From assembly GCA_017415325.1 (NCBI GenBank), contig JAFQGY010000346.1, positions 1-48,495 on the forward strand: 48,495 nucleotides of DNA, given 5' to 3'. Shown here one piece after another: positions 8,575 through 35,100 of this stretch. The stretch is from Clostridia bacterium (GTDB taxonomy: Bacteria; Bacillota; Clostridia; Oscillospirales; CAG-272). Below the pieces are notes generated by a model. The model was not told where the DNA came from, did not search any database, and saw only the letters and a list, made by a program, of their open reading frames with translations. Positions within the stretch are counted from its first letter, which is position 1. Every line of letters starts with the position of its first letter. Both the position numbers and the translations under genes were made by a program.

Positions 8575-8626
8575 GTCGGATTTTTGTGTTTTCACAGAAC
8601 AAGCTCACAAGAAAAAGGATGACAAT

Positions 8627-12656: not shown

Positions 12657-12760
12657 CCTTCTGCCATGCGGCTTCCCGCTAAAACGGACGCCGGAACGCA
12701 AACTCCCATGCAATGGACATCTGTATCTGTGGGTACGGAGGTCCGGAAAGGAAACATATC

Positions 12761-15700
12761 ATGCAAATCAAAAAATGGTTGTCCCTGTTCACGGCGCTGC
12801 TTCTGGTGGTCCAGAGTGCGGTGGTACTGACAGGGGCGGAAGAACCCGCTGTTTCTCTGACAGATGTTTCTGCTGATCCCGGAGCGGCGGTGGTATACGA
12901 AGCAGAAGAAACGGCGGCAGCAGAACCGGGGACTTCCTCCACAGCCAGTGCCATGGCAGCAGCGGCGGCATCCGGTCTGTATATCACCGATTCCTATGTG
13001 AACCCGCTGTATGAAGGGCTGACCATCGGCGAACTGCCTGCCGACACAGCAGAATCCGGTTTCCGGCTGATGACGGAAGAAGCGGACGTTGTGTTCCACG
13101 ATACCGCAGAAGAAGCGGCGGAGGTTCTGCTGGATGGGATGAAAGCCAGAGAATCTGTCATTGTTCTGGGGGTTACTGCGGAACTGTATGACCGGCTGGC
13201 GGCCATCACCTCTGCCCACAAGGAAATTTTCTATGCGGCGTATGCCCATGACCCGGCAGACCCCACCGGCGGGGACTATATCCGGTTCACCTTCGGCGGA
13301 TGGAACGGTGCCGGTGTCAAGTCGGACGAAGGCTGGACGCTGACCTACTACTTTGATTACTACACCACGCTGGCAGAAGAAGAAGCTGTGGACGCCAAAG
13401 TGGAAGAGCTGACTGCAGCATGGAAAGCCATGGACATGACGGAGTATCAGATTGTCCGCACCATTTATGAATATATCACCGAAAACGTAACCTATGACGA
13501 TGCCGGTCTGACTGCCTACAGGAATGCCGTCAGCAGCGATACCCTGACCATGAACCACTGCAAGATCTTTACGGCGTACAAGGCACTGATCAAAGGTACG
13601 GCTGTATGCCAGGGATTTGCGAATCTGTTCTACCGGCTGGCGCTGGAGATGGGTGTGGATGCCCGGATTATCGCCAGTGTCAAAGCGGAAAACCATGCAT
13701 GGAATATCGTGAAGCTGGGCAGATGGTACTACAATGTGGACGCCACCTGGGATGCCGAAAACGTGGAAACGGGGTATCTGTGGTTCCTGCTGAACGAGGA
13801 GGAATTTTCCGTCAAGCACACCCGCCGGGCGGAATTTGATACGGAAGCATTCCATGAAGCGTATCCCATGGGGGAAAGTATGTATGTGGGCATCGATGAA
13901 ACCATGACCGGTGCCTGCGGGGACGGTGTATACTGGACATTGACAGCCGATGGAAATCTCATTATTTCCGGGAACGGAAAAACGGATGCGTTTACGCTGG
14001 AAGGAACCGCACCATGGTATCCATACCGGGAAAGTATCCGGTGTCTCACTGTGGAAGAAGGGGTTACGGAGATCGGATATGCAGCATTCTGTGACTGCAC
14101 CAGTCTGGAAAGTCTGTCTTTACATGACGGCATTACAGATATGCACCCTTATGTATTTTATAACTGCAAATCTCTTACGTCTTTCTCTCTGCCGGCAAGT
14201 TCCCCCTGTGTGAATGCCAATGTGTTTGAAGGCTGTACTTCCCTCAGAGATGTGTATCTGCATGACAATACCTATGTTATTTATTTTGAGGCATTCAAAG
14301 GCTGTACGGCATTGACGGAAATTGCTGTGCCGCAGGATGTTTTTATGATCGGAACGGGTGCATTTGAAGACTGTACCAATCTGGAAGGCATCTATTTCTA
14401 TGGCAGTGATTTCTATTTTGAAGGGAATTATGATTTCCTTGTCAACGTCACACCGACACTGTATTATGTTGCCGGGACTGCACACTGGGAAAACTGGCCG
14501 AATGCGGTACCGTTCGAACCGGATATGTCTCATGTACAACTGCCGGTTTCCGGAAAGTGCGGAGAAAATGTCACATGGACACTGGATCAGTACGGTGTTC
14601 TGACACTGTCCGGCACAGGAGAGACTGCGTGGAGTACGTACTCCGGGAATGCTCCCTGGTACAGCTACCGTTCTCTGATTCGGAAATTGGTTGTGGAAGA
14701 GGGGATAACTGTACTCAGCGATAGACTTGTCGATGACTGTGTCCGTTTGGAAGAAATAGAAATCAGCAGTTCTGTGACCGGGATAAAGGGGAGATTCTAT
14801 GGCTGTACGGCTATGGAAACCTTTGAATGGCCAGTATCCGGTACATCTGATTTTGGGATCGAATGCTGGCATTCCCTGAAGGAACTTCATATTCCGGATA
14901 CGGTAACAGAGCTCGGCTATATTACCCATTGTACTTCACTGGAAGAACTGCATATCCCGGCTGGGATTACTGCACTGAAGGCATTCGGGATCAATAATAA
15001 CCCGAATCTTCAGAAAATCTATTTTTACAGTACAGAGGATCCCGCCGGCTATTTCAGTGAGAATGCAATATACAACACCAATGCAACCCTGTATTATCCT
15101 GTAGGTGCGAAAGGTTGGACAGAACCGGAATGGACTGCTCCGGACGGAAGTGTATACAGAACGGAGATGTATGTGCCTGAGGATCATACACATACATACG
15201 AAATTACTGTAAAGATTGATCCGACATGTACGGAAGCAGGCAGCATTACGTATACCTGCCCGGTATGTAAGGATACCTATACCGAAGAAATTTCTCCCAA
15301 GGGGCATGCCTACGGTACTCTGGTGGTTGTGGAGTCCGCTACTGTTCTGGAGGAAGGCCGCGGATATTACCAGTGCGGGAACTGCGGCATCAGGCAGGAA
15401 AAGACAATCGCAAAGCTTACTGTGGATGCAAATGATCCGAATTATGGAATCGCATACTTTACAGTAATAGATGCAAACACACTGGAACCGCTGGAAAATA
15501 TCCATATTCTGGTGGCAACGGCCAAAGATGGTGAATGCACACTGACAACGGATGCATACGGAAAAGCGGCTCAGATTCTTCCTGTCGGCAAACAGAACAT
15601 CTCCGTGTATGCCAAGGGGTATCTGACCAGAAATCTGACCATTACCGTTGCTCTCGGTGAAAACAGTCTGCCGTATATTGGTATGAGTACCAAACCTGTT

Positions 15701-18400: not shown

Positions 18401-21400
18401 ATGAGAAAATGCACATCTGCGGTTCTGTGTGCCATACTGCTGGCGGCCTGCCTGACTGCCGGAAACGCTGCGGTGTCTGCCGTGGTGCCGGAGGATGGGG
18501 TGATTCTGTCTGACAGCATGACAGGCGAGACTGCCGAAGCATCGTTTCCGTCGGATTTCCAGTGGAACTATGATGCGGACACGAAAACGCTGACGCTGTC
18601 CGGAACGGGGTATGTGAACGTAAATCCTTTGGCGGATATGCCGTGGGTGGACGTGAACAATGAGATTGAACATATCGTGCTGGAGGAAGGGATCACGGGG
18701 TACTATCAGTCCTTCAGCGGGGATACATCTGCTCCGACCATGTATAAGTCTGTGAAGACGCTTTCAGTGCCGTCAACCCTGAATAGTTTCAGTGTGTATA
18801 TTCCCACTCTGGAAAAATATACAGCAGCGGAAGGCGGATGTTTTTATTGTGCGGATGATGTTTTATACCGTAAAGACGGGGAGGAAACTGTGCTGGTCTC
18901 CTATCCGAGAGGGAAAAGCGATCTGACATCTTTTACCGTTCCGGAGGGAGTCACAACCATTCAGAACGGTGGTCTGCAGAATGAGTATCTGCGGGAGATT
19001 CTGCTGCCGGATACGCTTACTACACTGCAGAACCGTTCTTTGGGGATGATCAGTGCAGCCACCCTGCATATTCCCGCATCTGTCACGGAAATTGACCCAC
19101 AGGCATTTGCGGCAAATGGAAATATGATGGAATACACCGTGGCGGAGGACAACCCGTATTTCAAATCCGTGGACGGCTGTATCTATGACATCGATCAGAC
19201 CATTCTGTATGCCTATCCACTGAACAGCAGCCGGACGGAATACACTGTCTCCGAGGGTGTGACCCGGATTCCCGACGATATGCTCCGGTGGAAGAATGCA
19301 CTGGATGCCCTGTATCTGCCGACTACGCTGGAAACGGTGGTTGTGACCCATTGCAGCAACGGGAGATCCCCCGCTGTGGTGGAAATTGCGGAGGGAAATC
19401 CGTATCTGTGCTGTGTGGACAATATCCTGTACTCAGCCGATATGAAGACGATGGTTCACTATCCCAACGGAAAAACAGAGACGGAATTTACGATTCCCGA
19501 TACAGTGGAAACCTTTGCGGAACAGTGCTTTATGGGATGCCCCATCCGGAAACTGTACCTGGGCAGCGGCATCACGGACATGAATCTGGATCAGAACTGG
19601 TTCTATAACGCCAGCCGCCTATACTTCCAGACCGAACCGCCCGCATGGCTGCAGGAAGCGACGGAATACGATATGCAGAAGTTCTACCGTGACCTGTCCG
19701 GGCTGTATCTGTGCTATCCGGAAGGAACCGAAGGCTGGGAAACCCCCACATGGACCAGTGAAGCGGGCGTGACCTATAACACTGCCGTCATCGGCACGGA
19801 ACCGGAACCGGAAAGCGGCAGCAGCGGAAACAGCTGGATTGTTCTGGAGGAAGAAGACCGGGGCAATATCGCGTTCGGTGTCAAGCGCGCACAGACGGCA
19901 TGGTCGGCGGACGGCGTGTTCACCGAGGGAGAATACCATCTCATCGACGTACAGGATACCTGGATTTCTGCGGTCTCCGACAATGCGGAGGATGCCGAAA
20001 CTGCCAAGGCGCTGGACTTCACGCTGGCCATGTCCTGGGATGACCAGTACCTGTACAGCTGGATTTCCTATACGGATCCCGACGGAGAGTATGTGATTAC
20101 CCCTGAACTCTGGAACGGAAGCTGTGTGCAGTTCGGTGCAGCGGATGTGGGGGCGGCGGACAGCAATGACCGGCTGGAAATCGGGATTGCCATGGATGCC
20201 GGGACCGGGGAAGAATTCTCTCTGAACTGGTCAGACCGGATGGGCAGCGGGTTTATGGCGGACAACAGCAGCCCGGAAGATTTCTGCGTAACCGTGGACG
20301 GGGCTGCCGTTTCCTATGAACTGCGGGTGCCCTTTACAGCGATTTCCGAAAAAACACCGGAAGAAAATGCACAGTATGCACTGGCGTATGTGCTGTCCTG
20401 GGGCAACGGCGGCAGCAGCTTCAGCCACACCCAGCTGGCATCCGGGATCTCCGGCGGAAAGAACCCTGCGGACTTTGCCACGGTGACGCTGGAAGAAAAC
20501 TGGGAAGATTTTGAAAATGTACAGTGGCGCTTTGACAAGGAAGACGGTACCCTGTATGTGCGCGGGGACGGGGCTGTGCCTTCTCTCTCCAGAGGGGAAG
20601 ATTACCCATGGATCGGTCATGCCGCCGATATCAGGACGCTGGTGCTGCAGGAAGGGATCACCTCCTATCCGTATCTGGCATTCCGCCATTTGGCGAACGG
20701 CGAGTTCTTCTATGCCATCGAAACGGTATATCTGCCCTCCACACTGATACAGCACAGTGACGGAATCAACTCCGGCAACCATGTACTGCAGAATGTATTT
20801 GTGACACCGGGCGGAAAGTATTATGACATTGACGGTGTTCTCTTCTCCGAAACGGACGGTGAAGTTACGCTGGAAATCTACCCCAACGGCAGAACCAATG
20901 TGGAATCCTACACGGTTCCCGAAAATGTACAGCATCTGCAGGATATGTCCTTCTTTGCCACCGATGTGGCGGAGGTGATTCTGCAGGAAGGCCTGCTGAC
21001 CATCGGTGATTCTGCATTCTATTCCGCCAATATTGAAAAACTGGTTCTCCCTGCCAGCCTGACCACCATTGGACACAAGGGAATCCAGTACAACCGCCTG
21101 CTGGAAGAAATTGTTCTGGCGGAAGGCAGTGAATACTTCACGACGCTGGACGGTGTTCTCTATACCAAAGATATGAAGACTCTGGCGGCGTTCCCCTGCG
21201 GATGGCCGGGAGAAGAATTCACCATCCCGAATGGTGTGGAAACCATTCCTGCCAATATGTTCCGGTTTGCATTCCATGTGAAGAACCTGAACATCCCCGC
21301 ATCGGTTGTGAACATTGAAGATACCATGGACGGTGCCGGCTATACGGCTCTTGAAGCGTTCCATGTGGATGCCGATAACCCCAGCTGGTCCAGTGTGGAC

Positions 21401-22678
21401 GGTGTGCTGTTCAATAAGGATCAGACCCTGCTGTATTACTATCCCTCTTCCAGACCGGATACGGAATATATGGTTCCCGATACGGTGACGGAAATTGAAG
21501 AAACGGCGTTCTATATGATCCACAATCTGCAGAACCTGATTATGGGGAAGAATGTAGAAACGCTGGAATGGTACAGAACCTTCTATGCCGGAAATGCGCA
21601 GGCTCTCACCACAGTTACTTTCCAGAATGCTGAGGTTCCCGCATATATGCACGATGCCGATGCATTCTCCTATATCCGGGACAAAATGACGCTGTATGTG
21701 CCCGCTTCCTCTGCAGAATGGACGACCCCCACCTGGACGAACGATGCCGGTGTGACCTTCAACACTGCCCGATACAGCAGTTTTATGGCAGCGGAAGCAG
21801 ACCGGGGGATCAATATCCTCATCGACAAGGCACAGACCGCATGGACAGCCGACGGCATCTTCACTGCGGGCGAATATCACACCATTGACGTACAGAATTC
21901 CTGGGTATCCGGGGTAGCCAGCGCAGATCTGCTGGGACTGCAGGCCAAGAATCTGGATTTTGATCTGGCCATGTCCTGGGATGACACCTATCTGTACACC
22001 TGGATTTCCTATACCGATCCCAACGGATACCTGTTCACAGACGAAAATAACCCCTCTTTCTGGGATGGCAGTATCGTTCAGTTTGCCGGTGCGGAGTATT
22101 CTGTCGGTGAACAGTCTATGAACTTCTTAGAGGTAGGCTTCGGTGTGACTTCGGATACCGGTGAAGAACGGACCATCCGCTGGAACGATTATCTGGGCAG
22201 CAGCTTTATGGGGGCTAACAGTGATCTGGAAGATTTCTGTGCCGTAGTGGACGGAGATACGGTTTCTTATGAATTCCGTGTGCCGATCTCTGCCTTCTCG
22301 GAAAAGGATCCTGCCGTATATGCCCAGTATAAGGTGTCTTATGCGCTCTCCTGGGGGAACGGCGGCGGTGAATATGCCCTGACCCAGCTTGGCGATGGCA
22401 TCGCAGGCGGCCCCAAGGATCCCTCCCAGTATGCGGGCATCACGCTGATTGATACTGCCTCCGGTGCAGATATGCCTGTAAAGGGTGACATCACCGGCGA
22501 CGGTAAGGTGACAGCATCCGACCTGAGCCTTCTGCAGCAGTATTACGCCGGATACCCCACCGAAATCAATATATATGCCGTGGATTTCGACGGAAACGGG
22601 AAGCTGACCCGGAAGGATGTCATGATTCTCGCCCGGTATCTGGCCGGATGGGATGGGTATGACCAGTATTTCCGCTGA
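18401..22678 (+). CDS. Secreted (LRR + DOMON/CBM9-like) x2 + dockerin protein
   Basis: RBS AAGGAG; signal MRKCTSAVL; LRR with VDGVLF/Y motifs; two copies of DG.FT.GEY..LAMSWDD.YLY; dockerin GDITGDG..DFDGNGKLTRKD. Confidence 0.83.
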   Translation: MRKCTSAVLCAILLAACLTAGNAAVSAVVPEDGVILSDSMTGETAEASFPSDFQWNYDADTKTLTLSGTGYVNVNPLADMPWVDVNNEIEHIVLEEGITGYYQSFSGDTSAPTMYKSVKTLSVPSTLNSFSVYIPTLEKYTAAEGGCFYCADDVLYRKDGEETVLVSYPRGKSDLTSFTVPEGVTTIQNGGLQNEYLREILLPDTLTTLQNRSLGMISAATLHIPASVTEIDPQAFAANGNMMEYTVAEDNPYFKSVDGCIYDIDQTILYAYPLNSSRTEYTVSEGVTRIPDDMLRWKNALDALYLPTTLETVVVTHCSNGRSPAVVEIAEGNPYLCCVDNILYSADMKTMVHYPNGKTETEFTIPDTVETFAEQCFMGCPIRKLYLGSGITDMNLDQNWFYNASRLYFQTEPPAWLQEATEYDMQKFYRDLSGLYLCYPEGTEGWETPTWTSEAGVTYNTAVIGTEPEPESGSSGNSWIVLEEEDRGNIAFGVKRAQTAWSADGVFTEGEYHLIDVQDTWISAVSDNAEDAETAKALDFTLAMSWDDQYLYSWISYTDPDGEYVITPELWNGSCVQFGAADVGAADSNDRLEIGIAMDAGTGEEFSLNWSDRMGSGFMADNSSPEDFCVTVDGAAVSYELRVPFTAISEKTPEENAQYALAYVLSWGNGGSSFSHTQLASGISGGKNPADFATVTLEENWEDFENVQWRFDKEDGTLYVRGDGAVPSLSRGEDYPWIGHAADIRTLVLQEGITSYPYLAFRHLANGEFFYAIETVYLPSTLIQHSDGINSGNHVLQNVFVTPGGKYYDIDGVLFSETDGEVTLEIYPNGRTNVESYTVPENVQHLQDMSFFATDVAEVILQEGLLTIGDSAFYSANIEKLVLPASLTTIGHKGIQYNRLLEEIVLAEGSEYFTTLDGVLYTKDMKTLAAFPCGWPGEEFTIPNGVETIPANMFRFAFHVKNLNIPASVVNIEDTMDGAGYTALEAFHVDADNPSWSSVDGVLFNKDQTLLYYYPSSRPDTEYMVPDTVTEIEETAFYMIHNLQNLIMGKNVETLEWYRTFYAGNAQALTTVTFQNAEVPAYMHDADAFSYIRDKMTLYVPASSAEWTTPTWTNDAGVTFNTARYSSFMAAEADRGINILIDKAQTAWTADGIFTAGEYHTIDVQNSWVSGVASADLLGLQAKNLDFDLAMSWDDTYLYTWISYTDPNGYLFTDENNPSFWDGSIVQFAGAEYSVGEQSMNFLEVGFGVTSDTGEERTIRWNDYLGSSFMGANSDLEDFCAVVDGDTVSYEFRVPISAFSEKDPAVYAQYKVSYALSWGNGGGEYALTQLGDGIAGGPKDPSQYAGITLIDTASGADMPVKGDITGDGKVTASDLSLLQQYYAGYPTEINIYAVDFDGNGKLTRKDVMILARYLAGWDGYDQYFR

Positions 22679-22702
22679 ACTCCGATACAATCCAATACCC
22701 TG

Positions 22703-22743
22703 GCAGCACCTTCGGATCCTTTCTTCCGGAGGTGCTGTTTTTT
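22703..22743 (+). terminator. Intrinsic terminator
   Basis: GCAGCACCTTCGGA...TCCGGAGGTGCTGT followed by TTTTT. Confidence 0.8.
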
Positions 22744-22771
22744 AAAATGGCCATTAAATACCGAAATTCTC

Positions 22772-22800
22772 TTGAAAAATATAGGTGAATATGTTATACT
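22772..22800 (+). promoter_or_regulatory. SigA-type promoter
   Basis: TTGAAA-17 nt-TATACT with extended -10 TG. Confidence 0.7.
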
Positions 22801-22839
22801 GATTTCCGGAGAATTTTAATTCATAAGGAGAGGTTTGTT

Positions 22840-25800
22840 ATGAAAAAACTGTATGCTGCAATGGCGGCGGCCGGGCTTGCGGGGCTTCTTGCTCTGTCTG
22901 CCGGGGCTATGTACATTGGGGATGACCTGTCCGGGTTCACGGAAATCAGCGTGTATCCCATGCAGGCAGAGGCATGGATACCGGACGGTGTCTTTTCAGA
23001 AGGGGAATACCACGAGATTCACTACGAACGCGGATGGGTTTCTGCCAATACGACGCTGGATGAAGATGCACAGGCCGGGAAAGATCTGGATTTCACCCTC
23101 GCCATGAGCTGGGACGGTGATTATATCTATACATATGTACAGTATGTGGATGAAAACGGTTACGACAGCAGCTATGCTGCCAACCAGATGTATCTTGGGA
23201 ACATGCTGCAGCTGAACTTTGCGCTGGGAGACGCCGGCGGAGAAAATCTGTACAGTGTGGAAATGACCCGGTATGATCAGGGCGATCTGGGGGCATATTC
23301 CTGGTATGACTATCTGGTATCCGGATGGCTGCCCACGGCCGGTACGGATTATACCGTAATCGTGGAGGAGACTGCGGCCGGTAAGGATTTGGTGACTTAT
23401 GAAGCCCGGGTTCCCTTTGATGTTTTTTGTGAATTCGAACCGTCAAACGGCGAACGGTACAGCATGCTGCCCCTGATTTCCTGGGGGAGTGAAGGGGAAC
23501 TGATCCATACCCAGTTGGGCTGCGGCAGATCCGAGGGACTTTGGGTGTTCGGTTTTGTCAACTTCACCCTGCGTGACAGTGCGCCTGTACAGACAGAAAA
23601 TTACTGGCCCGAAGCGGAAGGGGCTTTCCAGAAGCTGGATCTCTGTGTACCCTACAGAGAAGCGGAATGGAATCCGGCCGACGGGGAGATGGGCGAAGGG
23701 GAATATTTCCTGATCGAAGAAGATTCCAGCTGGAACTCCGCCAGTGTGGGGGATCCCGCTCTGCTGGAAACGGCAAAGTATCTGGACTATACTCTCGGTA
23801 TGTCCTGGGATCAGGATTACCTGTATACCTATATGGAATTTATTGACCCCGACGGACATGTAAACGAAGGCGATGCGGAAAATATCTGGAACAACGGCGG
23901 TCTGCAGATCGGGCTGGCCTGCGGTGACCGGTCCGGCGGCGGTTTCCTGGAATACGGAATTTCCAGATCCACTGCGGATGACAGTCTGATGGCCCATCAG
24001 TGGAACGCCAATGAAGGCGGGGCGTATGATGCTTCCGGCAATTTCAACGTGGTTGTAACCGATCTGGAGAACGGAACATCCAAGGTTGTATATGAAGTAC
24101 GTACTCCCTTTGATGCATATACCGACTGGGGGGTACAGAGCGGCATGGTATCCAGCGTGGCATATGTGCTCTGCTGGGGGAACAATGCTGTTGCCCATAC
24201 CCAGATGTCCTCCGGGATCAGCGGCCAGATGGGGAAGGATGCAGCCTGCTTTGCGGATATTATTCTGACCGGCGGCCCTGCCAACTACATTGATGAAGAA
24301 GATGTGGGCAATGTTGCCTTCACGGTAGAACAGGCTACCGCAGCATGGGCAGCCGATGGTATGTACAGCGAAGGGGAATACTTCGATATCGACGTACAGA
24401 ACACCTGGATGTCTGCATTTTCCAGCGATCCTTTCCTGACGGAGGATGTTAAGAATCTGGACTTTGATCTGGCAATGTCCTGGGACGAAGATTACCTGTA
24501 CAGCTATGTGAAGTTCACTGCCCCCGGCGGATATGTACCGACTCCTGCAGGAAATCCGGGAGAGATGTGGGGATATACCTGTCTGCAGGTGGGCGCTGCG
24601 GATACCGACTGTACCGGCGGTAACCGACTGGAATACGGTCTGGCTACCGATACGGACGGAGATATGATCTCTGCCAACTGGAGTGATTACAGCTACAATC
24701 CCGAAGGAAATTACGGCGTATTTGTGGACGGCAGCACCGTTGTGTATGAACTGCGGACTCCCTTTACCGCTTTCTCCCGGTATCTGCCCTCCGACGGGAA
24801 CGAATACGGTATAGGCTATGTGATGAGCACCAGTATCGATACGGGTAATCTGCGGCATACCCAGCTGGCATCCGGTATCTCCGGTGACCCCGGCAAGGAT
24901 GCAGCCCGCTTTGCCACCATCACCCTGAACGGGGAAACCTATGATTACAGCGTTGCCTGGGAACTGTCCGATGACGGTACTCTTACTGTGTCCGGCAGCA
25001 ATCCGATCATGGGATACAACTCCGCTGACGAACAGCCCTGGGCAGAAGTGCGTGACCAGATCAAGGCCATCGTGATCGAAGGTTCCGTGGGCATTATCGG
25101 TACCAATGCGTTCCTGGACTGTGTGAATGCCGAAACCATCACCATCGGAGAGGGCATTGAAGAAATTGCCATTTTCGCCTTTGAACACTGTGCTGCCGTG
25201 AAGACCATTCACATTCCGGAAAGCGTGACCAACATTTCCGTGGGTGCCTTCAAGCGGTGCTATTCTCTGGAAGCCTTTACTGTGGATGCAGACAATGACA
25301 GTTATACTGCACAGGACGGTGTACTGTTTACAAAGGATATGATCCGTCTTCTGCGGTATCCTCTGAACAAGCAGGATACCTTCTACAAGGTGCCGGATTC
25401 CGTGGTGGTTCTGTCGGCTGCTGCCATGGAAGAACTGCAGAATCTGACCGATCTGACCCTGCCTGTGCATCTGGAATCCATTGAAAACTGGTGCTTCTAC
25501 GGCACAACAGGCCTGCAGGAAATCCGGATTCCCGCACGGCTGGAATTCCTGGACTCTTATGCATTCGGCGGCTGCACCAGTCTGACCGATGTATATTTCG
25601 CAGGCAGCAAGCCCTGGGTAAGATTTGCAGAAGATGCGTTTGCAGACACCACCGAAGGGATCACTCTGCACTACCACGCCGGTAAGGAAGGCTGGGATAC
25701 TGTGGAAGGATACAGAATGGACATGATGGGCTTCAGAGGGGACATCACCGGCGACGATGCTGTGACCGAAAACGACCTGTTGCTCCTGCAGCAGTATTAT

Positions 25801-25929
25801 TCCGGTTATCCCACCGAGATCAGCATGGATGCGGCGGATGTGGACGGCGACGGCAGACTGACCCGCAGAGATGTCATGATCTATGCCCGGTATATGGACA
25901 ACTGGGAAGCGTATGACCTGTACTTCTGA
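22840..25929 (+). CDS. Secreted 3x DOMON/CBM9-like + LRR + dockerin protein
   Basis: Signal peptide; three copies of DG...EGEY..L.MSWD..Y.Y..HTQ; one LRR block; dockerin GDITGDD..DVDGDGRLTRRD. Confidence 0.83.
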   Translation: MKKLYAAMAAAGLAGLLALSAGAMYIGDDLSGFTEISVYPMQAEAWIPDGVFSEGEYHEIHYERGWVSANTTLDEDAQAGKDLDFTLAMSWDGDYIYTYVQYVDENGYDSSYAANQMYLGNMLQLNFALGDAGGENLYSVEMTRYDQGDLGAYSWYDYLVSGWLPTAGTDYTVIVEETAAGKDLVTYEARVPFDVFCEFEPSNGERYSMLPLISWGSEGELIHTQLGCGRSEGLWVFGFVNFTLRDSAPVQTENYWPEAEGAFQKLDLCVPYREAEWNPADGEMGEGEYFLIEEDSSWNSASVGDPALLETAKYLDYTLGMSWDQDYLYTYMEFIDPDGHVNEGDAENIWNNGGLQIGLACGDRSGGGFLEYGISRSTADDSLMAHQWNANEGGAYDASGNFNVVVTDLENGTSKVVYEVRTPFDAYTDWGVQSGMVSSVAYVLCWGNNAVAHTQMSSGISGQMGKDAACFADIILTGGPANYIDEEDVGNVAFTVEQATAAWAADGMYSEGEYFDIDVQNTWMSAFSSDPFLTEDVKNLDFDLAMSWDEDYLYSYVKFTAPGGYVPTPAGNPGEMWGYTCLQVGAADTDCTGGNRLEYGLATDTDGDMISANWSDYSYNPEGNYGVFVDGSTVVYELRTPFTAFSRYLPSDGNEYGIGYVMSTSIDTGNLRHTQLASGISGDPGKDAARFATITLNGETYDYSVAWELSDDGTLTVSGSNPIMGYNSADEQPWAEVRDQIKAIVIEGSVGIIGTNAFLDCVNAETITIGEGIEEIAIFAFEHCAAVKTIHIPESVTNISVGAFKRCYSLEAFTVDADNDSYTAQDGVLFTKDMIRLLRYPLNKQDTFYKVPDSVVVLSAAAMEELQNLTDLTLPVHLESIENWCFYGTTGLQEIRIPARLEFLDSYAFGGCTSLTDVYFAGSKPWVRFAEDAFADTTEGITLHYHAGKEGWDTVEGYRMDMMGFRGDITGDDAVTENDLLLLQQYYSGYPTEISMDAADVDGDGRLTRRDVMIYARYMDNWEAYDLYF

Positions 25930-25964
25930 TTTGTACCGGATATCTGAATAAAACCGGAACAAAA

Positions 25965-26181
25965 CCGCTCCTGTGGGACAAACCTGCGGGGGCGGGTTTT
26001 GTTTGTGCAGATAAAATGTATTTTTTATCAAACAACTTGCGGAAAGAATAGTTTTGTGCTATACTGTTGGGGAACAACAATACAGGAGGACAACAGAGGG
26101 ATATGAAGACAATGAAAAAACTGCTGCTTGCGGCCGGGATGCTGGCACTGCTGATGCTGCCGGTGCAGGCGGAGGATGCTG
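25965..26181 (+). repeat. 217-bp repeat (terminator-promoter-RBS-signal peptide), copy 1; copy 2 at 28960-29176, partial copy at 32006-32047
   Basis: Near-identical sequence CCGCTCCTGTGGGACAAACCTGCG...GGAGGATGCTG on visual alignment. Confidence 0.92.
26037..26065 (+). promoter_or_regulatory. SigA-type promoter (duplicated at ~29032-29060)
   Basis: TTGCGG-17 nt-TATACT with extended -10 TG; the copy reads TTGCAG-17-TATACT. Confidence 0.65.
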
Positions 26182-28931
26182 TGACAGAACCGGTTCAGGA
26201 AGTGGAAATGACCGGCGAAACGCTGACAGCGGACTATCAGACATGGTATAATGTACAGTGGAAATTTGATTCTGCCACCGGAACGCTGTATATCGGCGGG
26301 GAAGGGGCACTGCTGCAGGGCGGCCCCAGCTTCTATCCGTGGTATTCCTATGCATCGCAGATCAAAAAGGTCGTGGTGGAAGAAGGAATTACGGATCTGG
26401 CATACTCTTCTGTACGGGCGGATACCATTTCCTATACCGAAATCCATCTGCCGTCCACGCTGACCGAAATGGACGCTGTTCTGCTGCATGGATACAATCT
26501 GAAAACCATCACTGTGGCCGACGGCGGGATGTTTTATGTACAGAACGGAATCCTGTTCAAGGACGACGGAACGGACGTTACTCTGGTGTGCCAGCCGGGC
26601 GGACTGGTTCTGCGTACCTATACGGTTCCTGAGGATGTAACAAAGATCGGGGATTATGCATTCATGTCCCAGACTCTTACAGAACTGACCCTGCCGGAAG
26701 GGCTTGTCAGCATCGGCAGTCAGGCGTTTTATGGATGCAATGTCCTGACCTCCCTGTACATCCCGGCGGCGGTGACGGACATTCATGAGGAAGCCTTTAC
26801 CTACTGCAATGCGCTGGAAACCATTACGGTGGATCCGGATAACACGGTGTACACGGCGCAGGACGGGGTTCTGTTCACAAAGGATATGAAGCTGCTGCAT
26901 ACCTATCCGGCAAGAAAAGCGGGGACAGAGTATATGGTACCCGACGGTGTGGAACAGATTGCCTCTACCGTAATGAAACACTCCCGGATTCTGGAAGAAC
27001 TGACACTTTCCGCAACGGTACGGGAAGTTGTGCAGGTTATGGGATCCCTGTCTCCCCTGCCGTTCCGGGCGGTGTATGTGGATGCGGACAACCCGTATCT
27101 GTGCAGCAAAGACGGTATTCTGTACAGCAAGGATATGACTGCCCTGGTGCACTATCCCATCGGTCATACGGCTGCGGTATATGTGATGCCGGATACACTG
27201 AAGACGATCGTGAACGATGCCATCTGGGCAGTTTCCAATCTGGAGACAGTATACTGGGGCAGCGGCGTGGAAACGGTGGAAAACCGGATATACTGGGGCG
27301 GCGGCGTAAAGAGTATGTATTTCCCCGGGGATGTACCGGTATGGATGACCAACGGCTGCCGCAATGTACGCACGCAGGCGACCATGTACTACCCCGCAGG
27401 CAATACCACCTGGACAGACGGAACCATGACCTACGATGGGAATACCTATACTACTGCGGCATATGAAGCGGAAGAAGACGTGCAGTGGAATACATGGGAA
27501 AATATTCTGTGGAGATATGATGAAGAAACCGGGACACTGCATATCTCCGGGGAAGGGACAATGCCGGATGTGGAAGCGGATCTGTGGCCGTGGTATTCCC
27601 TTGCGGAATCTGTACAGCATGTAGTGTTTTACGGATTTGAAGAACTGTTGTATGACGTGTTCGGCTGTGCATACGGTGAGGGGGAGGCATATCCGAATAT
27701 TGTTTCCGTGACTCTGCCCTCCTCCCTGACATATCTGAATCCGATTGTAACCGGGTATCTGCCGCTTCAGAATTATTATGCGGAAGAGGGCGGATTCTAT
27801 TTTACACAGGACGGTATTCTGTATTCCATGCAGAATGGTCTGAAGAATCTTATATCCTATCCGTCCGGGCGCGATGAACAGCAAATCGTCGTTCCGGAAG
27901 GTACCCAGCGGATCTGGCAGGAAGCCATACTGCAGTCAGAGGCCGAAGAAATTGTGCTGCCGGAGAGTCTGCTGGAGATACTCTCACTTTCCATAGACTC
28001 CAGAGTGATTACTACGATCCATATTCCGGCAGGTGTTGAATATGTGTATGAGGATGCCTTTGTATTGTGCAATGCTCTGCAGTCCATTACAGTGGATACG
28101 AAAAATACAGAGTATTCTGCAGTGGACGGCGTATTGTATACGAAAGATATGACCATTCTGGTGGAATATCCCGAAGGTCGGCCGGATGAGATCTATGCCG
28201 TACCGGAAGGAGTGGAAAAGATCAATTCCTCTGTCATGACTACCCCGCAGTATATGAAAAGACTGGAACTTCCTGCATCTCTGATAAACATCGGAAATGT
28301 CGGGATATGGATGATGAATTGTTCTTTGGAAGAAATCAATGTTGATCCGGACAATACCGTATATGCTTCTGTGGATGGTGTGTTGTATGATAAGGATGTC
28401 ACAACAATGTATGTGTATCCTGTGGGTAAGCAGAATACAGTCTTCCGGATTCCGGATACGGTATCTGTATTGTATACAAGTAGCATGAATTTTAACAGGT
28501 ATCTGACAGATCTGTATATGAATAATGTGGAAACTGTAGGGATGTTTGCGTTAAGCGAAATTCCGGAACTGCGTAATGTGTATTTCTCCGGTGCGGTACC
28601 GGCATATCTGAATACGGCTTTTTCAGAATACGGAACTGCAATTACACTGCGGTATCTGCAGAGTGCAGAAGGCTGGAGCAGTCCCACAATGACCGTGGAG
28701 GGTGTGACATACAATACGGCTGTATATTCGATTGCAGGTGACATCACCGGCGACGGAAAAACCGACGAAACCGACCTGTCTCTCCTGACCCAGTATTTTT
28801 CCGGCTACCCCACAGAAATCGATGAATCTGCCGTGGATCTGGACGGAAACGGGAAGTTGACCCGGAAGGATGTCATGATTCTCGCCCGGTATCTGGCCGG
28901 ATGGGATGGGTATGACCAGTATTTCAGCTGA
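26103..28931 (+). CDS. Secreted 2x LRR (BspA-type) + dockerin protein
   Basis: Signal MKTMKKLLLAAG; two modules starting W.(F/Y)D..TGTL.I.GEG; many DGVL(F/Y).KD..L..YP units; C-terminal dockerin. Confidence 0.85.
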   Translation: MKTMKKLLLAAGMLALLMLPVQAEDAVTEPVQEVEMTGETLTADYQTWYNVQWKFDSATGTLYIGGEGALLQGGPSFYPWYSYASQIKKVVVEEGITDLAYSSVRADTISYTEIHLPSTLTEMDAVLLHGYNLKTITVADGGMFYVQNGILFKDDGTDVTLVCQPGGLVLRTYTVPEDVTKIGDYAFMSQTLTELTLPEGLVSIGSQAFYGCNVLTSLYIPAAVTDIHEEAFTYCNALETITVDPDNTVYTAQDGVLFTKDMKLLHTYPARKAGTEYMVPDGVEQIASTVMKHSRILEELTLSATVREVVQVMGSLSPLPFRAVYVDADNPYLCSKDGILYSKDMTALVHYPIGHTAAVYVMPDTLKTIVNDAIWAVSNLETVYWGSGVETVENRIYWGGGVKSMYFPGDVPVWMTNGCRNVRTQATMYYPAGNTTWTDGTMTYDGNTYTTAAYEAEEDVQWNTWENILWRYDEETGTLHISGEGTMPDVEADLWPWYSLAESVQHVVFYGFEELLYDVFGCAYGEGEAYPNIVSVTLPSSLTYLNPIVTGYLPLQNYYAEEGGFYFTQDGILYSMQNGLKNLISYPSGRDEQQIVVPEGTQRIWQEAILQSEAEEIVLPESLLEILSLSIDSRVITTIHIPAGVEYVYEDAFVLCNALQSITVDTKNTEYSAVDGVLYTKDMTILVEYPEGRPDEIYAVPEGVEKINSSVMTTPQYMKRLELPASLINIGNVGIWMMNCSLEEINVDPDNTVYASVDGVLYDKDVTTMYVYPVGKQNTVFRIPDTVSVLYTSSMNFNRYLTDLYMNNVETVGMFALSEIPELRNVYFSGAVPAYLNTAFSEYGTAITLRYLQSAEGWSSPTMTVEGVTYNTAVYSIAGDITGDGKTDETDLSLLTQYFSGYPTEIDESAVDLDGNGKLTRKDVMILARYLAGWDGYDQYFS

Positions 28932-29001
28932 GGAAAAACCAATACAGCCAAAACCAAATCCGCTCCTGTGGGACAAACCTGCGAGGGCGGGTTTTGTTTG
29001 T
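28734..29001 (+). repeat. 268-bp repeat (dockerin + terminator), copy 1; copy 2 at 31780-32047; related dockerin 3' half at ~22590-22678
   Basis: Long identical runs such as CCCGGAAGGATGTCATGATTCTCGCCCGGTATCTGGCCGGATGGGATGGGTATGACCAGTA in three genes. Confidence 0.92.
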
Positions 29002-29097
29002 GCAGATAAAATGTATTTTTCATCAAACAACTTGCAGGAAGAATAGTTTTGTGCTATACTATTGGGGAACAACAATACAGGAGGACAACAGAGGATT

Positions 29098-31977
29098 ATG
29101 AAGACAATGAAAAAACTGCTGCTTACGGCTGGAATGCTGGCACTGCTGATGCTGCCGGTACAGGCGGAGGATGCTGAGCCGGTGTATATGCCTGCCCATG
29201 CACCTGCCGGAGCAGAGGAAGAAATGACCGGTTCATCCGGTTTCGGGGAAACATCCGCAGCATTCCAGGAGTGGAACAATATCCAGTGGGAATTCGATGA
29301 AACCACAGGGACACTGACGATCACAGGGCAGGGGAAAATGCCTGGATGGAGTTTCAGAGATGCCCCATGGGTCGGACATGCTGCTCAGGTAAAGACGGTA
29401 ATTGTAGGAGAAGGTATTACCTATATCGACAGCTGGGTACTTTCTTGCAGAGATATGCCGTATACTGCCCTCCATCTGCCGTCAACGCTGGAATATATAG
29501 ATGTAAACATGCTGGAGAACACTTCTCTGAATACCATTACGGTTGCAGAGGGCGGTATGTATTATGTAGAAGATAATGTTCTTTTCTGTAAAGATGGAAA
29601 TATGGTGACACTGAGCTTTTATCCGGGCGGTCTGACGAATACGGAATATACCGTTCCTGAGGGTGTTTCACATATTGGCAGATCTGCATTCGTCAATCGG
29701 AATCTGAAGAAGGTAACTCTGCCGGAAAGTCTTGTGGGAATCGGATATGTGGCGTTCGATGGTGCATACAGTCTTACGGAAATAACAATTCCGGCAGGGG
29801 TATCGGAGATTGATCTTGCAGCATTTGTGTATAGTGGTCTGCAAAATATTTATGTGGATCCAGACAACACCTGCTATACTTCTGTGGACGGCGTTCTGTT
29901 TACAAAGGATATGTCTATGCTGCATACCTATCCGGAGCGTAAAGAAGGGAACGGAGAATATACGGTGCCGGACGGAGTAACCGATGTGGTTTCAACCATA
30001 ATGTCTCTGAGCTATATTCGAAAGCTGTATCTGCCGGCTTCCGTGGAACGGCTGGTATCTGCTGGTACAGGGGCTTCCTCCTCTGCCTGGCTTCGTGAAA
30101 TCTATGTTGCGGAGGACAATCCGTACATGACGAGCGTGGATGGTATTCTGTACAGCAAGGATGTGACAGAACTGCTGTGGTATCCCAACAATCATTCCAA
30201 TATAGAATATACGGTACCGGATACGGTAGAACATATATACAGTTCTTCTTTCTGGTGGATCACCAATCTGCAGACAGTAATTTTCAACGATAAGGTATCT
30301 GTTGACGGATTTCTGCAGTGGGGAAACACCCTGACAGCGATGTACTTCCCTGGGAATGTTCCGGCCTGGCTGAATGATGCATGCAGGAGTGTGAAGGATC
30401 AGGCTATCCTGTACTATCCCAATGGAAACCCCACCTGGACGGACGGCTCCATGACAGTGGATGGGTATACCTATACCACAGCGGCATACGGAGAAGGGGT
30501 AGAAGACAGCACTGTATGGAACACATGGGAGAATATCGAGTGGTTCTATTACGATGTTACAGGCATCCTGAAGGTTCGCGGAACGGGTACCATCCCCGAT
30601 GTGGAATATGCAGAATATCCGTGGAATTCCTACAGATTCAACATCAAAAACCTGACTGTGGAAGCCGGCATCACCGATATTCCCTGGGGGGCATTTTATG
30701 GGTGTTATAATATGCTGTCCGTAAATCTCCCTGCTACGCTGGAAAGTATGAATACGGAATTTCTCATAAATGCATATAGCTTAAGAAGTCTTCAGGTAGA
30801 AGAAGGCGGTACCATATATACAGAGGACGGCGTGCTGTTTTCTGCGAAAGATAAGTCGCTGCTTCTGTATCCGCGATATCTGCAGAATGCATCGTATACT
30901 GTACCGGAAGGGACTATACGCATTGCATACAACGCTATAAACGGAAACGGTTCGCTGAAAGAACTGATTCTTCCGGAATCTCTTGAAGAAATCATGGGAA
31001 GGGCGCTGCAGATATCCGGTCTGGAGAGTCTGTACATTCCCAAAAATGTCCGGTATATTGATATGAACGGGATCCGTTTCTGTGATTATCTGACGGAAAT
31101 CACGGTGGATGCCGATAATCCCTATTATAAATCTGTGGACGGTATTCTTTTCACGGAAGATATGACAGTACTGCATACCTATCCGATGGGTCGTACGGCG
31201 GCTGAATACACGGTGCCGGATACGGTTGTGATAATGCCTGCTGCTGTATATACACAGGTACGGCAGCTGAAAAAACTGAATATTCCCGCTTCTGTGGAAG
31301 AGATCTGTGCGGCTACCGGCTGGTCTGGCGGATGCGTACTGGAAGAAATCGTGGTGGATCCGGACAATGCATATTTCTGTTCCGAAGACGGCGTGCTGTA
31401 CAGCAAGGACAAGACCGTACTGTACCATTATCCTGCCTGTAAAGAAGAGAAAGAATACCATATACCGGATTCGGTAACCACAACGATGTCTTTATGTATC
31501 TATGATGCGGATTATCTGGAAACACTGTATGTCGGGAAGAATATTGCCGATGTTCGGGATGCTATATTAGGCGGAACCTTCCCCCGACTCACCGGGGTCT
31601 ATTTCCAGGGGGATTTCCCGGACTATTTCTGGAAGGCATTCAACAATCTGCTCTACAGAGGAACAAAGTGTACATTCTATTATCCGGAAGGTGCCGAAGG
31701 ATGGAGCAGCCCCACCATGGAGATCAATGGATTTACATTCACCACTGCGGCATACACCCCCGACACTGCTGACATTCCCGCAGGTGACATCACCGGCGAC
31801 GGAACCACCGACCAGAATGACCTGTCTCTCCTGACCCAGTATTTCTCCGGCTACCCCACCGAAATCGATGAATCTGCTGTGGATCTGGACGGAAACGGGA
31901 AGCTGACCCGGAAGGATGTCATGATTCTCGCCCGGTATCTGGCCGGATGGGATGGGTATGACCAGTACTTCAGCTGA
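29098..31977 (+). CDS. Secreted 2x LRR + dockerin protein (paralog of 26103-28931)
   Basis: Same signal peptide, architecture and dockerin as the upstream gene; LRR payload clearly diverged. Confidence 0.85.
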   Translation: MKTMKKLLLTAGMLALLMLPVQAEDAEPVYMPAHAPAGAEEEMTGSSGFGETSAAFQEWNNIQWEFDETTGTLTITGQGKMPGWSFRDAPWVGHAAQVKTVIVGEGITYIDSWVLSCRDMPYTALHLPSTLEYIDVNMLENTSLNTITVAEGGMYYVEDNVLFCKDGNMVTLSFYPGGLTNTEYTVPEGVSHIGRSAFVNRNLKKVTLPESLVGIGYVAFDGAYSLTEITIPAGVSEIDLAAFVYSGLQNIYVDPDNTCYTSVDGVLFTKDMSMLHTYPERKEGNGEYTVPDGVTDVVSTIMSLSYIRKLYLPASVERLVSAGTGASSSAWLREIYVAEDNPYMTSVDGILYSKDVTELLWYPNNHSNIEYTVPDTVEHIYSSSFWWITNLQTVIFNDKVSVDGFLQWGNTLTAMYFPGNVPAWLNDACRSVKDQAILYYPNGNPTWTDGSMTVDGYTYTTAAYGEGVEDSTVWNTWENIEWFYYDVTGILKVRGTGTIPDVEYAEYPWNSYRFNIKNLTVEAGITDIPWGAFYGCYNMLSVNLPATLESMNTEFLINAYSLRSLQVEEGGTIYTEDGVLFSAKDKSLLLYPRYLQNASYTVPEGTIRIAYNAINGNGSLKELILPESLEEIMGRALQISGLESLYIPKNVRYIDMNGIRFCDYLTEITVDADNPYYKSVDGILFTEDMTVLHTYPMGRTAAEYTVPDTVVIMPAAVYTQVRQLKKLNIPASVEEICAATGWSGGCVLEEIVVDPDNAYFCSEDGVLYSKDKTVLYHYPACKEEKEYHIPDSVTTTMSLCIYDADYLETLYVGKNIADVRDAILGGTFPRLTGVYFQGDFPDYFWKAFNNLLYRGTKCTFYYPEGAEGWSSPTMEINGFTFTTAAYTPDTADIPAGDITGDGTTDQNDLSLLTQYFSGYPTEIDESAVDLDGNGKLTRKDVMILARYLAGWDGYDQYFS

Positions 31978-32111
31978 GGAAAACCCTATACAGCCATAAC
32001 CGAATCCGCTCCTGTGGGACAAACCTGCGGGGGCGGGTTTTGTTTGTTTTTGGGAGTAATTAATCTGCCTTTAAAAAATCATGGCCAAAGGGATTTTTCT
32101 GATAAAATCGC

Positions 32112-32193: not shown

Positions 32194-35100
32194 ATGAAAC
32201 GCAAACTTTGGACAGCGCTGCTTCTGGCGGCCCTGACGACGACCCTGCTTTCCACGGCTGCGGCTGCGGAAGACTGGGGAAGCGGCGGATGGGAAGTGGC
32301 CAAGCGGAAAGCGGACTGGAATCCGGACGGTATCTGGGCAGAAGGGGAATACTATTCCGTTGACCCGGCCTATGATACGGAAAACTATCAGGCTGCCAAC
32401 GATGAACTGTACGAACGGGCAGAAAATCTGAACTACATGATGGCGATGTCCTGGGACGAAGACTACCTGTACACGTACATTTCCTATCAGGCACCCGCCG
32501 AACCGGTTGTTTCCGCAGACCTGTGGGACGGCCATGTGATTCAGTTCTCCGGGACAGATGTGGGGAACGAAACCATTTATAATGAAAATGGGGAAGTAAC
32601 AGATGACCCCCGCCTGGAAATCGGGATTACCAGAAATTTTGAAACCGACGAGAAGATCAGTACCAACTGGTGCACCTGGCTGGATTCTGACTATGGCTTC
32701 GATTCCAACTGTACGGACGACTTCGAAGCGTTCTTCTGCGACGGTTGGGTGACTTACGAATTCCGCGTGCCCTTTGCCGCATTCTCGGAGATTACCCCTG
32801 CGGTGAACGAACAGGTCGGCGTGGCGTATGTGATTGCCGTTGGGGACGGGGACTGGAATTATTCCCATGTCCAGATCGGGCAGGGCGTCACCGGCGGGAA
32901 GCATGCGGAACTGCATTCTGTGATCACCCTGACGGATACATTTGAGTTTCCGGAACGGGACGGCAATGCGTACTATATCCTGTTCCATAATATCGGGAAC
33001 AACAATCCCCACAGCGAATATTTCTCATACTATGAAAGCGGTGACAGCCTGCAGTATTACGGTACGGACGGCGCTGAAGATACCGCATATGCAGACGACC
33101 TGCTTGCCCTTCTGCCGGAAGAAAAACGGGAAGAAATGCAGAACGTGGAAGGGTATGATTTTATCAACTTCCGTCTTGCATACTGGAACGAGACAGACGG
33201 TGTCGGCTCCGTGGTGGAAAACCGGCAATTCAAGCTGACGGACAAGGTTTCTCTTGCGGATGTACAGGACTATGCGTTCTACGACGGGTACAACTGGTGC
33301 ATCATGTTCACCGCCTGCTATGACCCGGAAATGTACACCGTAAAGTTCAACAACATCGGGAACGTGAATCCGGGCGACTACTGGTCGGCACAGAAGATGG
33401 ATGTTGTTCCCTTTGACACCAACTTCTACGATATTTTCCCGTATGAATGGGACTACCCGACTCTGTTTGACGTACCCGGGTTCCGGTTCGACCGCTGGCG
33501 TGTGCTGGACTTCACCAATGAAGTGGAAAATCCCGGATATGAAGAACAGTACATGAGCGGCGGCGCCATGTATTACGGCGGTGCTGCTACAGAAGACGGG
33601 AGATACCCGCTGGACGGCTTCATTGCCGGATTTGCTTCCGAAATGGAAAGTGACGAATATCCGGTCATTACCCTCCGTGCGGTGTATTATCCCATCGACT
33701 ACACCATCCGCTTTGTGGACGATGACGGCGTGACGGAACTGCGGGATTCTGTGGTTCTGCACATCGGTGACGGGATCCGTGACCACTTCCCGGAAATCCC
33801 CGAGAAGGACTACGGTACCTTTACCCACTGGAAGCTGGACTGGGTGAACGGGGAAGACGGCTTCTATACCATGCCGTATGACGACGCAGACAACCCGGGA
33901 TACCCCATTGACGAAAACCTGATCGAAAAGTGTGCCGTGGATACCGATGATGACGGGTTCGGCGACACCATCACCCTCGTGGCGGAATACGAGCTGAACG
34001 AAGATGCCGGGGATCTGCGTGCATCCGGTATCATCGAAACCGAAAACGGCGATATCCAGTGGGAAGTACACTGGAACGGCCTGCTGTTTGTGGGCAACCA
34101 TGACCTGATAAACGGGCTTGTGATTCCGGATTATGAGATCTGGGAGGGCGTTTATGCACCGTGGCATCCCTACAGAAACTACATCACCGAACTGGAAATC
34201 GGCAGTGAAATTGGCGTGATCGGTAAAAATGCCTTTGCGGAACTGCAGAGAGTGGACTATCTCTTTATTCCCGGCAACGTAAAGGAAATCCGCGAAAATG
34301 CATTTATTGACTGCTGGAATGTAGGCTATATCGAACTGGATTACGGTATCGAAAAGATCGGCCGGGACGCATTCTGCGGCTGCAATACCGGCGATCTCTG
34401 GATTCCCGAAACTGTGACCGAAATGGACAGAGCTTCCTTCGCCCATCTGGGTACCAACTGGTACGGTGTGGACGGGAATAACCCTGTGTTCCATGCAGTA
34501 GACGGCGTCCTGTTCTATGAAGCAGACGGCCGGTACATCCTTTGGGCATATCCCAAGTGGGATGGACGACCTTCCTATGCAGTGCCGGAGGGTGTGGATA
34601 CCATCGGCGCCTGTGCATTCAAATGGGCAGAAAACGTAAAATCTGTGATTCTGCCGGATTCTCTGAAGTCTATCGAAGACGCTGCATTCTCCCGCTCCGG
34701 TGTGGAAACCATTCAGATTCCCGCCGGTGTGGTATTCCTGGACAACGGGGCATTTGAAGGTACGAATTCCCTGTCTTCCGTATACTTCTACGGCCCTGTT
34801 CCGACAGACTATGTAGGGTATGAGGTATTTACGGAAAACACCGACGACTTTACCATCTACTATCTCGAAGGTCAGGAAGGCTGGACGGAAGGTACATGGG
34901 ACAACCCCTATACGGAAGATGCAGCGGAAGCATATCCCACCGCCACCTTCTCCGCAGATGTCAACTTTGCGGAAGGTTCCATTGAAGGGTATGACATCAC
35001 ATGGTACATCACCATGGACGGCAGGCTGTATGTAAACGGCTCCGGCGAAATCCCGGACTATATCTGGGAGTACGGCTACAGCTGGTATGACCATATGAAT

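Follow-up and report, generated by a model that had tools for sequence, protein, structure and literature searches.

How do two neighbouring genes come to carry almost the same DNA at both of their ends and strongly diverged coding sequence in between? This question is raised by contig JAFQGY010000346.1 of a metagenome-assembled Clostridia bacterium (GCA_017415325.1), which was analysed over 48,495 nucleotides (nt), hereafter the window, and which contains eight consecutive plus-strand genes (g2 to g9, 8573 to 36945), all with Pfam matches to BspA-type leucine-rich repeats (LRRs; LRR_5, PF13306) and to a C-terminal dockerin (PF00404). An initial annotation of the window described the array as a series of cassettes with constant junctions and variable payloads, and proposed that homologous recombination or gene conversion at the junctions expands, deletes and swaps whole expression cassettes, giving a strain-variable repertoire. 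The explanation that we consider likely is general homologous recombination, acting both as gene conversion at the ends of the adjacent genes g7 and g8 and as replacement of LRR modules from diverged alleles, within a cohesin-dockerin display locus. The array and its variation are well documented, and in mechanism the case is ordinary and reveals nothing new.

Constant ends and diverged bodies of g7 and g8

The genes g7 (26103..28931, plus strand) and g8 (29098..31977, plus strand) each comprise a signal peptide, two homologous LRR modules of ~420 residues apiece and a dockerin, and their products are paralogues that share about half of their residues (~50%; 48.4% amino acid identity over the 987 columns of the full-length alignment). 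Self-BLAST and a repeat search of the window identified two pairs of near-identical stretches on the plus strand. The 5′ module, which contains the terminator hairpin, a promoter-like site, a ribosome-binding site (RBS) and the signal peptide up to ..QAEDA, lies before g7 at 25960-26181 and before g8 at 28955-29176 (94.6% identity over 222 nt). The 3′ module, which contains the dockerin and the terminator hairpin with its T run, lies at 28734-29001 in g7 and at 31780-32047 in g8 (94.0% over 268 nt). Both modules meet at the g7/g8 junction (28734..29176), where they overlap in the terminator, and the terminator occurs three times in all. The initial annotation had reported these repeats with the same content and nearly the same extent (217 bp at 25965/28960, and 268 bp). 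Weaker copies of the dockerin part are present at 22481-22748 (69%) and 25735-26002 (60%), and the start-to-start spacing of the four copies is 3254, 2999 and 3046 nt. In the remainder of the 433-contig genome, BLAST detected the constant modules of g7 and g8 nowhere except for one 38-nt dockerin match.

Each array gene has a separate hairpin terminator. The three hairpins of the g7/g8 pair, followed by a T run, have folding energies of -30.4 (z -5.0; 25960 copy), -24.0 and -29.5 kcal/mol (z -5.5; 31780 copy), with z values from -3.2 to -5.5, and a TTGxxx-17-TGnTATACT site and an RBS are located downstream of each hairpin. This shared site, which is of the TG-extended -10-like type, falls below the threshold of the promoter scan and was recognized by eye, as was the RBS, whereas the promoter-like sites before g6 and g9 were listed by the scan. 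An Rfam scan of the whole window returned just 5S ribosomal RNA (rRNA) and transfer RNA (tRNA), leaving the junctions without any Rfam element; thus, no known leader or riboswitch accounts for the 5′ module.

The contrast between ends and bodies is sharp. When the g7 unit (25960-29001) is aligned with the g8 unit (28955-32047), the identical columns amount to 210/222 and 252/268 in the two ends and to 1387/2633 in the body (Fisher p = 5e-81); 11 of the 12 longest exact runs fall in the ends, and a 64-nt identical run common to both genes lies in the dockerin. In a codon-wise sliding window, nucleotide identity is 0.94 in the first window, 0.37-0.76 along the body and 0.90-0.96 over the final two windows, and the drop at each inner border (after ..QAEDA and before GDITGDG) is confined to a single 30-codon window. 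Synonymous divergence (dS, Nei-Gojobori), which the initial annotation had suggested examining along the genes, is 0.17 for the signal peptide and 0.21 for the dockerin but 1.09-2.99 for nine body blocks. The abrupt loss of similarity at both borders and the strong divergence of the intervening LRRs are thus as initially described, and the synonymous distances make the bodies of g7 and g8 older than their ends.

The two genes are old tandem paralogues. The outer repeat borders (25960 and 32047) are the expected leftovers of one terminator-to-terminator tandem duplication, and it is the inner borders that need an explanation. The likely explanation is that g7 and g8 arose from an old tandem duplication of a ~3.0-kb terminator-to-terminator unit, and that RecA-type gene conversion between the neighbours has since held the export end and the docking end nearly identical. 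The term "cassette array" is thus too strong for what is a pair of genes within a looser family.

Mosaic alleles in other strains

A search with g8 of 5.8 billion proteins gave 2551 matches among 8000 scored candidates, and the alleles compared here were taken from the 120 matches listed. Three g8 alleles are 80% (P0002, 959 residues), 76% (P0003, 960 residues) and 58% (P0004, 949 residues) identical to g8, and a protein exactly the same as g8 has been recorded from two contigs. By contrast, g7 is 98.6% identical to its orthologue P0007, with every 30-residue block at 90-100%. The database entries of P0007, P0003 and P0011 (the orthologue of g5) all give 48,906 nt as the longest contig, and the three probably lie on one NCBI contig.

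The differences between g8 alleles are not spread evenly along the protein: g8, a hypervariable slot in the array, is a strain-variable mosaic of module-sized blocks, in which identities of ~100% stand next to 35-65%. Compared with P0002, g8 is 39-71% identical in residues 61-390 and mostly 83-100% identical beyond, which corresponds to 64% in module 1 and 88% in module 2 (the g7/g8 values for these modules are 48% and 37%). P0002 and P0003 share 99% of their residues in module 1 and 76% in module 2; for g8 and P0004 the corresponding values are 77% and 35%. Among g8, P0002 and P0003, the linker that separates the modules (g8 residues 451-480) does not differ at all (100% identity). A similar replacement is found in g5, the first LRR module of which (residues ~80-400) has been replaced between strains; g5 and P0011 are 35-77% identical in this part and 90-100% identical elsewhere.

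DNA from other sequencing runs, available as Logan contigs (X2, X3, X5 and X17), shows the same kind of variation. The runs carrying window DNA are labelled gut metagenome, and an aldolase encoded in the window has 91% identity to a protein bearing the label 'MAG: Clostridia bacterium' and 72-74% to proteins labelled 'Ruminococcaceae bacterium'. In run X17, from an independent study, a 4831-nt contig of depth 161 aligns with 18004-18720 and 19542-20568, with ~824 unlike letters between these segments, and the unlike block coincides exactly with the variable g5 block. The g8 pieces of run X3 differ unevenly from the window (3/426, 52/595 and 39/639 letters). In addition, the internal repeats of g9 are rearranged in X3 and X17, where 36725/36728 is joined to 35011.

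These observations bear out the proposed strain-variable repertoire, with the variable unit redefined. The swapping of whole expression cassettes is supported weakly, if at all. When g8 residues 1-40 were searched in the 5.8 billion proteins, only 4 of 10 candidates matched, namely g8, P0003, P0002 and the g7 cluster (lengths 527-1679 residues); thus, the search matched g7/g8-type proteins only and no other bodies, within this range of lengths, are known behind the export module. What varies is the LRR module inside the gene. Most likely, recombination with diverged alleles of the population, anchored in the constant ends and in the inter-module linker, swaps whole LRR modules, and such replacement has turned g8 and the first g5 module into strain-variable mosaics. 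The variation would be driven by selection on binding by the LRR modules.

Several further signs of structural variation in the run contigs are less clear. Contigs of X2 depart from the window at 21147, 21183, 25900 and 28146 (loose ends of 255 letters), which may indicate additional structural variants of g5, g6 and g7. Depth in X17 falls to 0-6 over 29067-31670, compared with ~145-165x on g5, g6, g7 and g9; the contigs break off at 28784 and start again at 32006, and a loose end before 32008 is unlike the window. The hole does not count as evidence for absence or replacement of g8 in this run, as no contig joins across it and contig holes prove nothing. Three other X17 joints (18720 to 25305, 25338 to 29886 and 25585 to 26803) have sides of 22-36 letters that fall on LRR repeat family D3, and were discarded as cross-matches.

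Competing explanations

Among the alternatives to recurrent conversion, the one that survives best is a recent duplication, in which g7 and g8 separated at ~5% divergence and one of the two bodies was then replaced by a diverged allele, with no repeated conversion. Module replacement from diverged alleles can be demonstrated at g8 and g5, and the outer repeat borders are the edges of the duplication unit, as this scenario would have it. Nevertheless, we consider it unlikely in view of the relationships among the alleles. In either module, the distance to g7 is roughly the same for every g8-type allele, P0004 included (34-48% identity to the g7 bodies). The ends of P0004 are less like those of g8 (69% in the signal peptide block, 75% in the dockerin block) than are the ends of g7 (86% and 95%), so that the g7 and g8 bodies are older than the similarity of their ends. 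Furthermore, the dockerin block is 100% identical in g8, P0003 and P0007, whereas the dockerin of the window's g7 differs from that of P0007 at three clustered residues (KTDETD versus TTDQND). The P0007 version is that of g8, which points to an exchange after the split of the strains, and the three clustered differences may be the footprint of a short conversion tract. The trees and matrices computed block by block from these proteins are discordant in a corresponding manner: with just two genomes containing both g7 and g8, the ends appear to cluster according to genome or species, and the bodies according to gene. Gene conversion at the constant ends, as the initial annotation had it, is therefore the reading that the young ends, the saturated bodies and the P0007 dockerin favour.

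Some observations weigh against that reading. Within this single genome, a pair that was duplicated recently and then had one of its bodies replaced would look identical. A divergence of 5-6% remains between the g7 and g8 ends, which means that the last exchange in this lineage was not very recent. The allele comparisons are all at the protein level, at which conversion tracts are deduced from clustered residues and not mapped. No homogenized junction repeats were found at the dockerin-LRR loci of three congeneric species (G067, G005 and G004); the pattern is thus not general to dockerin-LRR arrays. On a contig of one of these relatives, an unrelated feature was noted: a 297-nt direct tandem duplication (99.7%) at L076 6186-6787 (G067:C13) that has no connection with LRR genes. 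In the favoured model, unequal crossing-over at the g7/g8 repeats may also add or remove a whole gene, and the proposed expansion and deletion of cassettes finds a weak sign in one 375-nt contig of X5 (depth 5.35), which follows the g7 body from 28631 to 28946 and continues, after six other letters, with 32005-32057. The joint passes the shared terminator by ~10 letters and X5 also contains g8 pieces. Logan contigs are derived from a k = 31 graph, and a mis-join is possible in this contig because g7 and g8 share the 64-nt identical run.

A DNA search of 40 relatives gave short matches only (at most 85 nt, in 7 of the 40), a protein search of 52 other genomes of the genus gave two matches at E <= 1e-50 (44-47% identical), and contig searches of genomes and metagenomes gave 35 and 22 loci, respectively, the best segments of which are 22-41% identical. 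With only short or distant matches in other species, the content of the array cannot be compared across species.

The regular 3.0-kb spacing, the sharp borders and the conserved hairpin at every junction could also be taken for the marks of programmed diversification, with the junctions serving as recognition sites of integron-like cassettes, of a shufflon or invertible promoter, of a diversity-generating retroelement or of antigenic variation from silent cassettes. This is very improbable. Pfam scans of 31 open reading frames (ORFs) or ORF parts on both strands, the larger ones of the window, detected no integrase, invertase, transposase or reverse transcriptase (14 of the 31 matched no family), in agreement with the initial annotation, which had seen neither a recombinase nor a reverse transcriptase. 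The promoters have no flanking inverted repeats, none being found around them beyond the terminator stems, and the hairpin follows the stop codons and precedes a T run, as in a terminator. There are no silent copies, as each one carries a promoter-like site, an RBS and a signal peptide. Neither the window nor the genome has a stretch that matches the variant blocks of the alleles, which means that the donors are not stored in the genome. The signal-peptide module, moreover, is confined to g7/g8-type proteins in the search described above.

An assembly artefact, that is, repeat collapse or strain chimerism, is hardly more credible, even in a genome of 433 contigs with 4.56% contamination and with repeats long enough to mislead short-read graphs. 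The initial annotation had itself named collapse as a possible source of the identical junctions, but the copies differ by 5-6% and hence are not collapsed. Contigs of X2, a second sample of the source study, cover all 30 bins of the window, and 36 of their 42 pieces are at least 99% identical. A contig of X3, from another study, bridges 31572-32210 (g8 body, dockerin, terminator and start of g9), and one of X17 bridges 22634-25994; the whole g7/g8 junction is bridged by no listed piece, so this join is less well checked. The orthologues of g7 and g8, with the same ends, are apparently together on the independent 48,906-nt contig, and the exact g8 protein is recorded twice.

Lastly, purifying constraint on the export signal, the dockerin and the regulatory DNA, with no exchange at all, can be set aside almost entirely: the signal peptide and the dockerin are indeed functional modules and the dockerins of g4-g9 are all mutually related in alignment, but the synonymous, four-fold and non-coding spacer sites of the ends are conserved as much as the protein (four-fold sites identical at 12/15 and 29/31 in the two ends and at 90/207 in the body; non-coding DNA from terminator to RBS ~95% identical, as alike as the coding ends), for which selection at the protein level cannot account, and the dockerins of g6 and g9, under the same expected constraint, are just 73-76% identical in DNA to those of g7 and g8.

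A proposed display locus and comparable systems

Two genes directly upstream of the array encode scaffoldin-like proteins. The first (3597..4820, plus strand) resembles an adaptor scaffoldin, with two cohesins (Pfam Cohesin, two stretches, 1.1e-13; located at 3741-4058 and 4224-4520 by the whole-genome cohesin scan) and a C-terminal dockerin (Dockerin_1, 5.6e-12). The two halves of this dockerin are encoded by a 65-nt direct repeat (98.5%; 4647-4711 versus 4743-4807) and are nearly identical in translation; such a symmetric dockerin might bind in either orientation. The second (4831..8454, plus strand) resembles an anchoring scaffoldin, with an N-terminal cohesin (4921-5226, 45.2 bits), YDG, MBG, Big_3 and InlB-B-repeat modules (Pfam YDG, MBG_2, Big_3 and Flg_new_2) and a C-terminal S-layer homology (SLH) domain (2.4e-13). 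The G+C content is 0.42-0.47 over 4001-8000, compared with ~0.52 in the remaining window. All three cohesin matches of the genome (two above the cut-off) are in these two genes, and the window contains 10 of the 18 dockerin matches from a whole-genome scan. According to the available portions of a preprint, many ruminococcal cohesins are missed by sequence models (bioRxiv 10.64898/2026.02.05.704116); the "only" cohesins of this genome are thus the only detectable ones.

In the array, the dockerin scores above the 22.9-bit Pfam cut-off in all eight genes (E 1e-5 to 4.6e-13), and paired D-x-[DN]-x-[DN]-G loops are visible when the dockerins are aligned; LRR_5 is likewise above its cut-off in all eight (E 4.3e-18 to 2.1e-72). 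The first three genes, g2 (8573..10654, with a likely start near 8627), g3 (10719..12656) and g4 (12713..18166, an ORF of 1817 residues with a terminator-like hairpin behind it at 18221-18261), add a transglutaminase-like core detected by Pfam. The dockerin DNA of g2 and g3 (10503-10648 versus 12505-12650) is 85.6% identical over 146 nt and the proteins are ~30% identical overall, which appears to be a second, older instance of a docking end common to neighbours. The remaining genes combine LRR_5 with a different module. Two LRR_5 modules alternate with two copies of it in g5 (18401..22678, start from orthologue P0011), three copies precede LRR_5 in g6 (22840..25929), and one copy is accompanied by six LRR_5 stretches in g9 (32194..36945, with its own promoter-like site at 32112-32140). 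All of these genes are on the plus strand and end in the dockerin.

This module of ~210 residues is present in six copies (19862-20509, 21812-22459, three in 22957-24939, and 32269-32943). Two stretches of it were scanned and neither matched a Pfam family. An AlphaFold model (predicted local distance difference test 82.8, predicted template-modelling score 0.85) matched family-9 carbohydrate-binding modules (CBM9) in a Foldseek search (7nwn, E 7.9e-7, template-modelling scores 0.57/0.61; 1i82_A). The modelled fold suggests a divergent family of CBM9-like modules joined to LRR-dockerin proteins. Dockerin-borne enzymes for polysaccharide degradation, as in a true cellulosome or amylosome, were not seen: no glycoside-hydrolase Pfam family was found in any of the 10 dockerin proteins of the window, which include, outside the array, the product of a 551-residue ORF (41902-43557, minus strand) with a dockerin close to the N-terminal end (residues 49-105) and no further Pfam family. 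At the start of the contig, 5S rRNA (75-191) and a tRNA (276-348) place the locus just downstream of the end of an rRNA operon.

The locus thus has the appearance of a self-contained cohesin-dockerin set with binding proteins, and not enzymes, as its cargo. Docking and wall attachment are deduced from the established behaviour of the cohesin, dockerin and SLH families, by analogy with which the array dockerins would bind the upstream cohesins and the array proteins would be located on the cell surface. A pair of scaffoldins, one of them anchored to the cell wall by SLH, and eight separately terminated genes of the form signal peptide-binding body-dockerin would then constitute a surface-display locus, in which the exported proteins dock on the upstream cohesins and turn their LRR and CBM9-like modules to the outside for binding.

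Among described systems, the nearest is an array of five same-strand, head-to-tail group 4b dockerin genes (ORF01263-ORF01267) in Ruminococcus flavefaciens FD-1, which encode a signal peptide, a transglutaminase-like or LRR part and a dockerin, with conserved C-terminal and variable N-terminal parts, in a genome with 28 LRR modules among its dockerin proteins (Rincon et al., 2010; PMC2930009). The array studied here differs in that the common DNA extends over the terminator, the promoter-like site, the RBS and the signal peptide, in that cohesin genes are in the same cluster, and in that no glycoside hydrolase of the window carries a dockerin. It also has strain-level mosaic alleles, whereas the accessible sections of Rincon et al. 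(2010) mention neither gene conversion nor strain variation of the FD-1 array. In the open-access literature searched, no title or abstract was found that deals with strain mosaics of dockerin-LRR arrays or with gene conversion in them.

The closest mechanistic parallel is in Listeria monocytogenes, in which the arrangements inlG-C2-D-E and inlG-H-E are found depending on the strain, as recombination between inlC2 and inlD to inlH removes a gene (the part of PMC3977354 on this cluster). In the Clostridia array, the organism is of the gut commensal type and not a pathogen, and module replacement from diverged alleles dominates over fusion of neighbours. Internalins have a different type of LRR and are anchored by LPXTG or by other means, in contrast to the dockerin-cohesin attachment proposed here. 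In eukaryotes, the plant nucleotide-binding LRR receptor (NLR/R-gene) clusters and TLR1/TLR6 are tandem LRR genes shaped by unequal crossing-over and by gene conversion; they resemble the present locus in their homogenized conserved parts, diversified repeat cores and gain or loss of copies by homologous recombination. By contrast, they encode receptors, and the conserved ends in the Clostridia locus are the export and docking modules of a cohesin-dockerin scaffold. The adhesin paralogues babA and babB of Helicobacter pylori have near-identical 5′ and 3′ ends, a divergent middle and gene conversion, but they are dispersed and not tandem, and encode outer-membrane proteins that are not of the LRR type. 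With regard to function, gut ruminococci possess adhesion-type cellulosome-like assemblies that use cohesin-dockerin pairs for binding and not for the breakdown of cellulose (bioRxiv 10.64898/2026.02.05.704116). In the available portions of that preprint, the binding domains are on the scaffoldins and recombination is not dealt with; in the present locus, separate dockerin-bearing cargo genes form a tandem array.

As for the biology of this uncultured gut Clostridia bacterium, its dockerin-borne LRR proteins are among the products of its most strain-variable genes, with g7 conserved at 98.6% next to g8 at 58-80%. These proteins are probable contact points with a variable partner, be it the host, phage, other microbes or a substrate, and g8 and the first g5 module are concrete targets for binding studies. 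The locus also provides a worked example of functional end modules, an export signal and a dockerin, that serve at the same time as anchors of homology when modules are exchanged. It is tempting to go further and to speculate, as a possibility that we hold tentatively and find doubtful on balance, that the locus is a self-contained adhesin-display machine in which a cohesin scaffold fixed to the wall displays exchangeable LRR binding modules, and in which the ends and the linker are retained partly as recombination anchors. Members of a commensal population could then exchange binding specificities one module at a time as phage, host antibodies or changing substrates exert pressure. If this were true, the adhesin-display machine would be the cohesin-dockerin counterpart of adhesin and antigen variation in pathogens.

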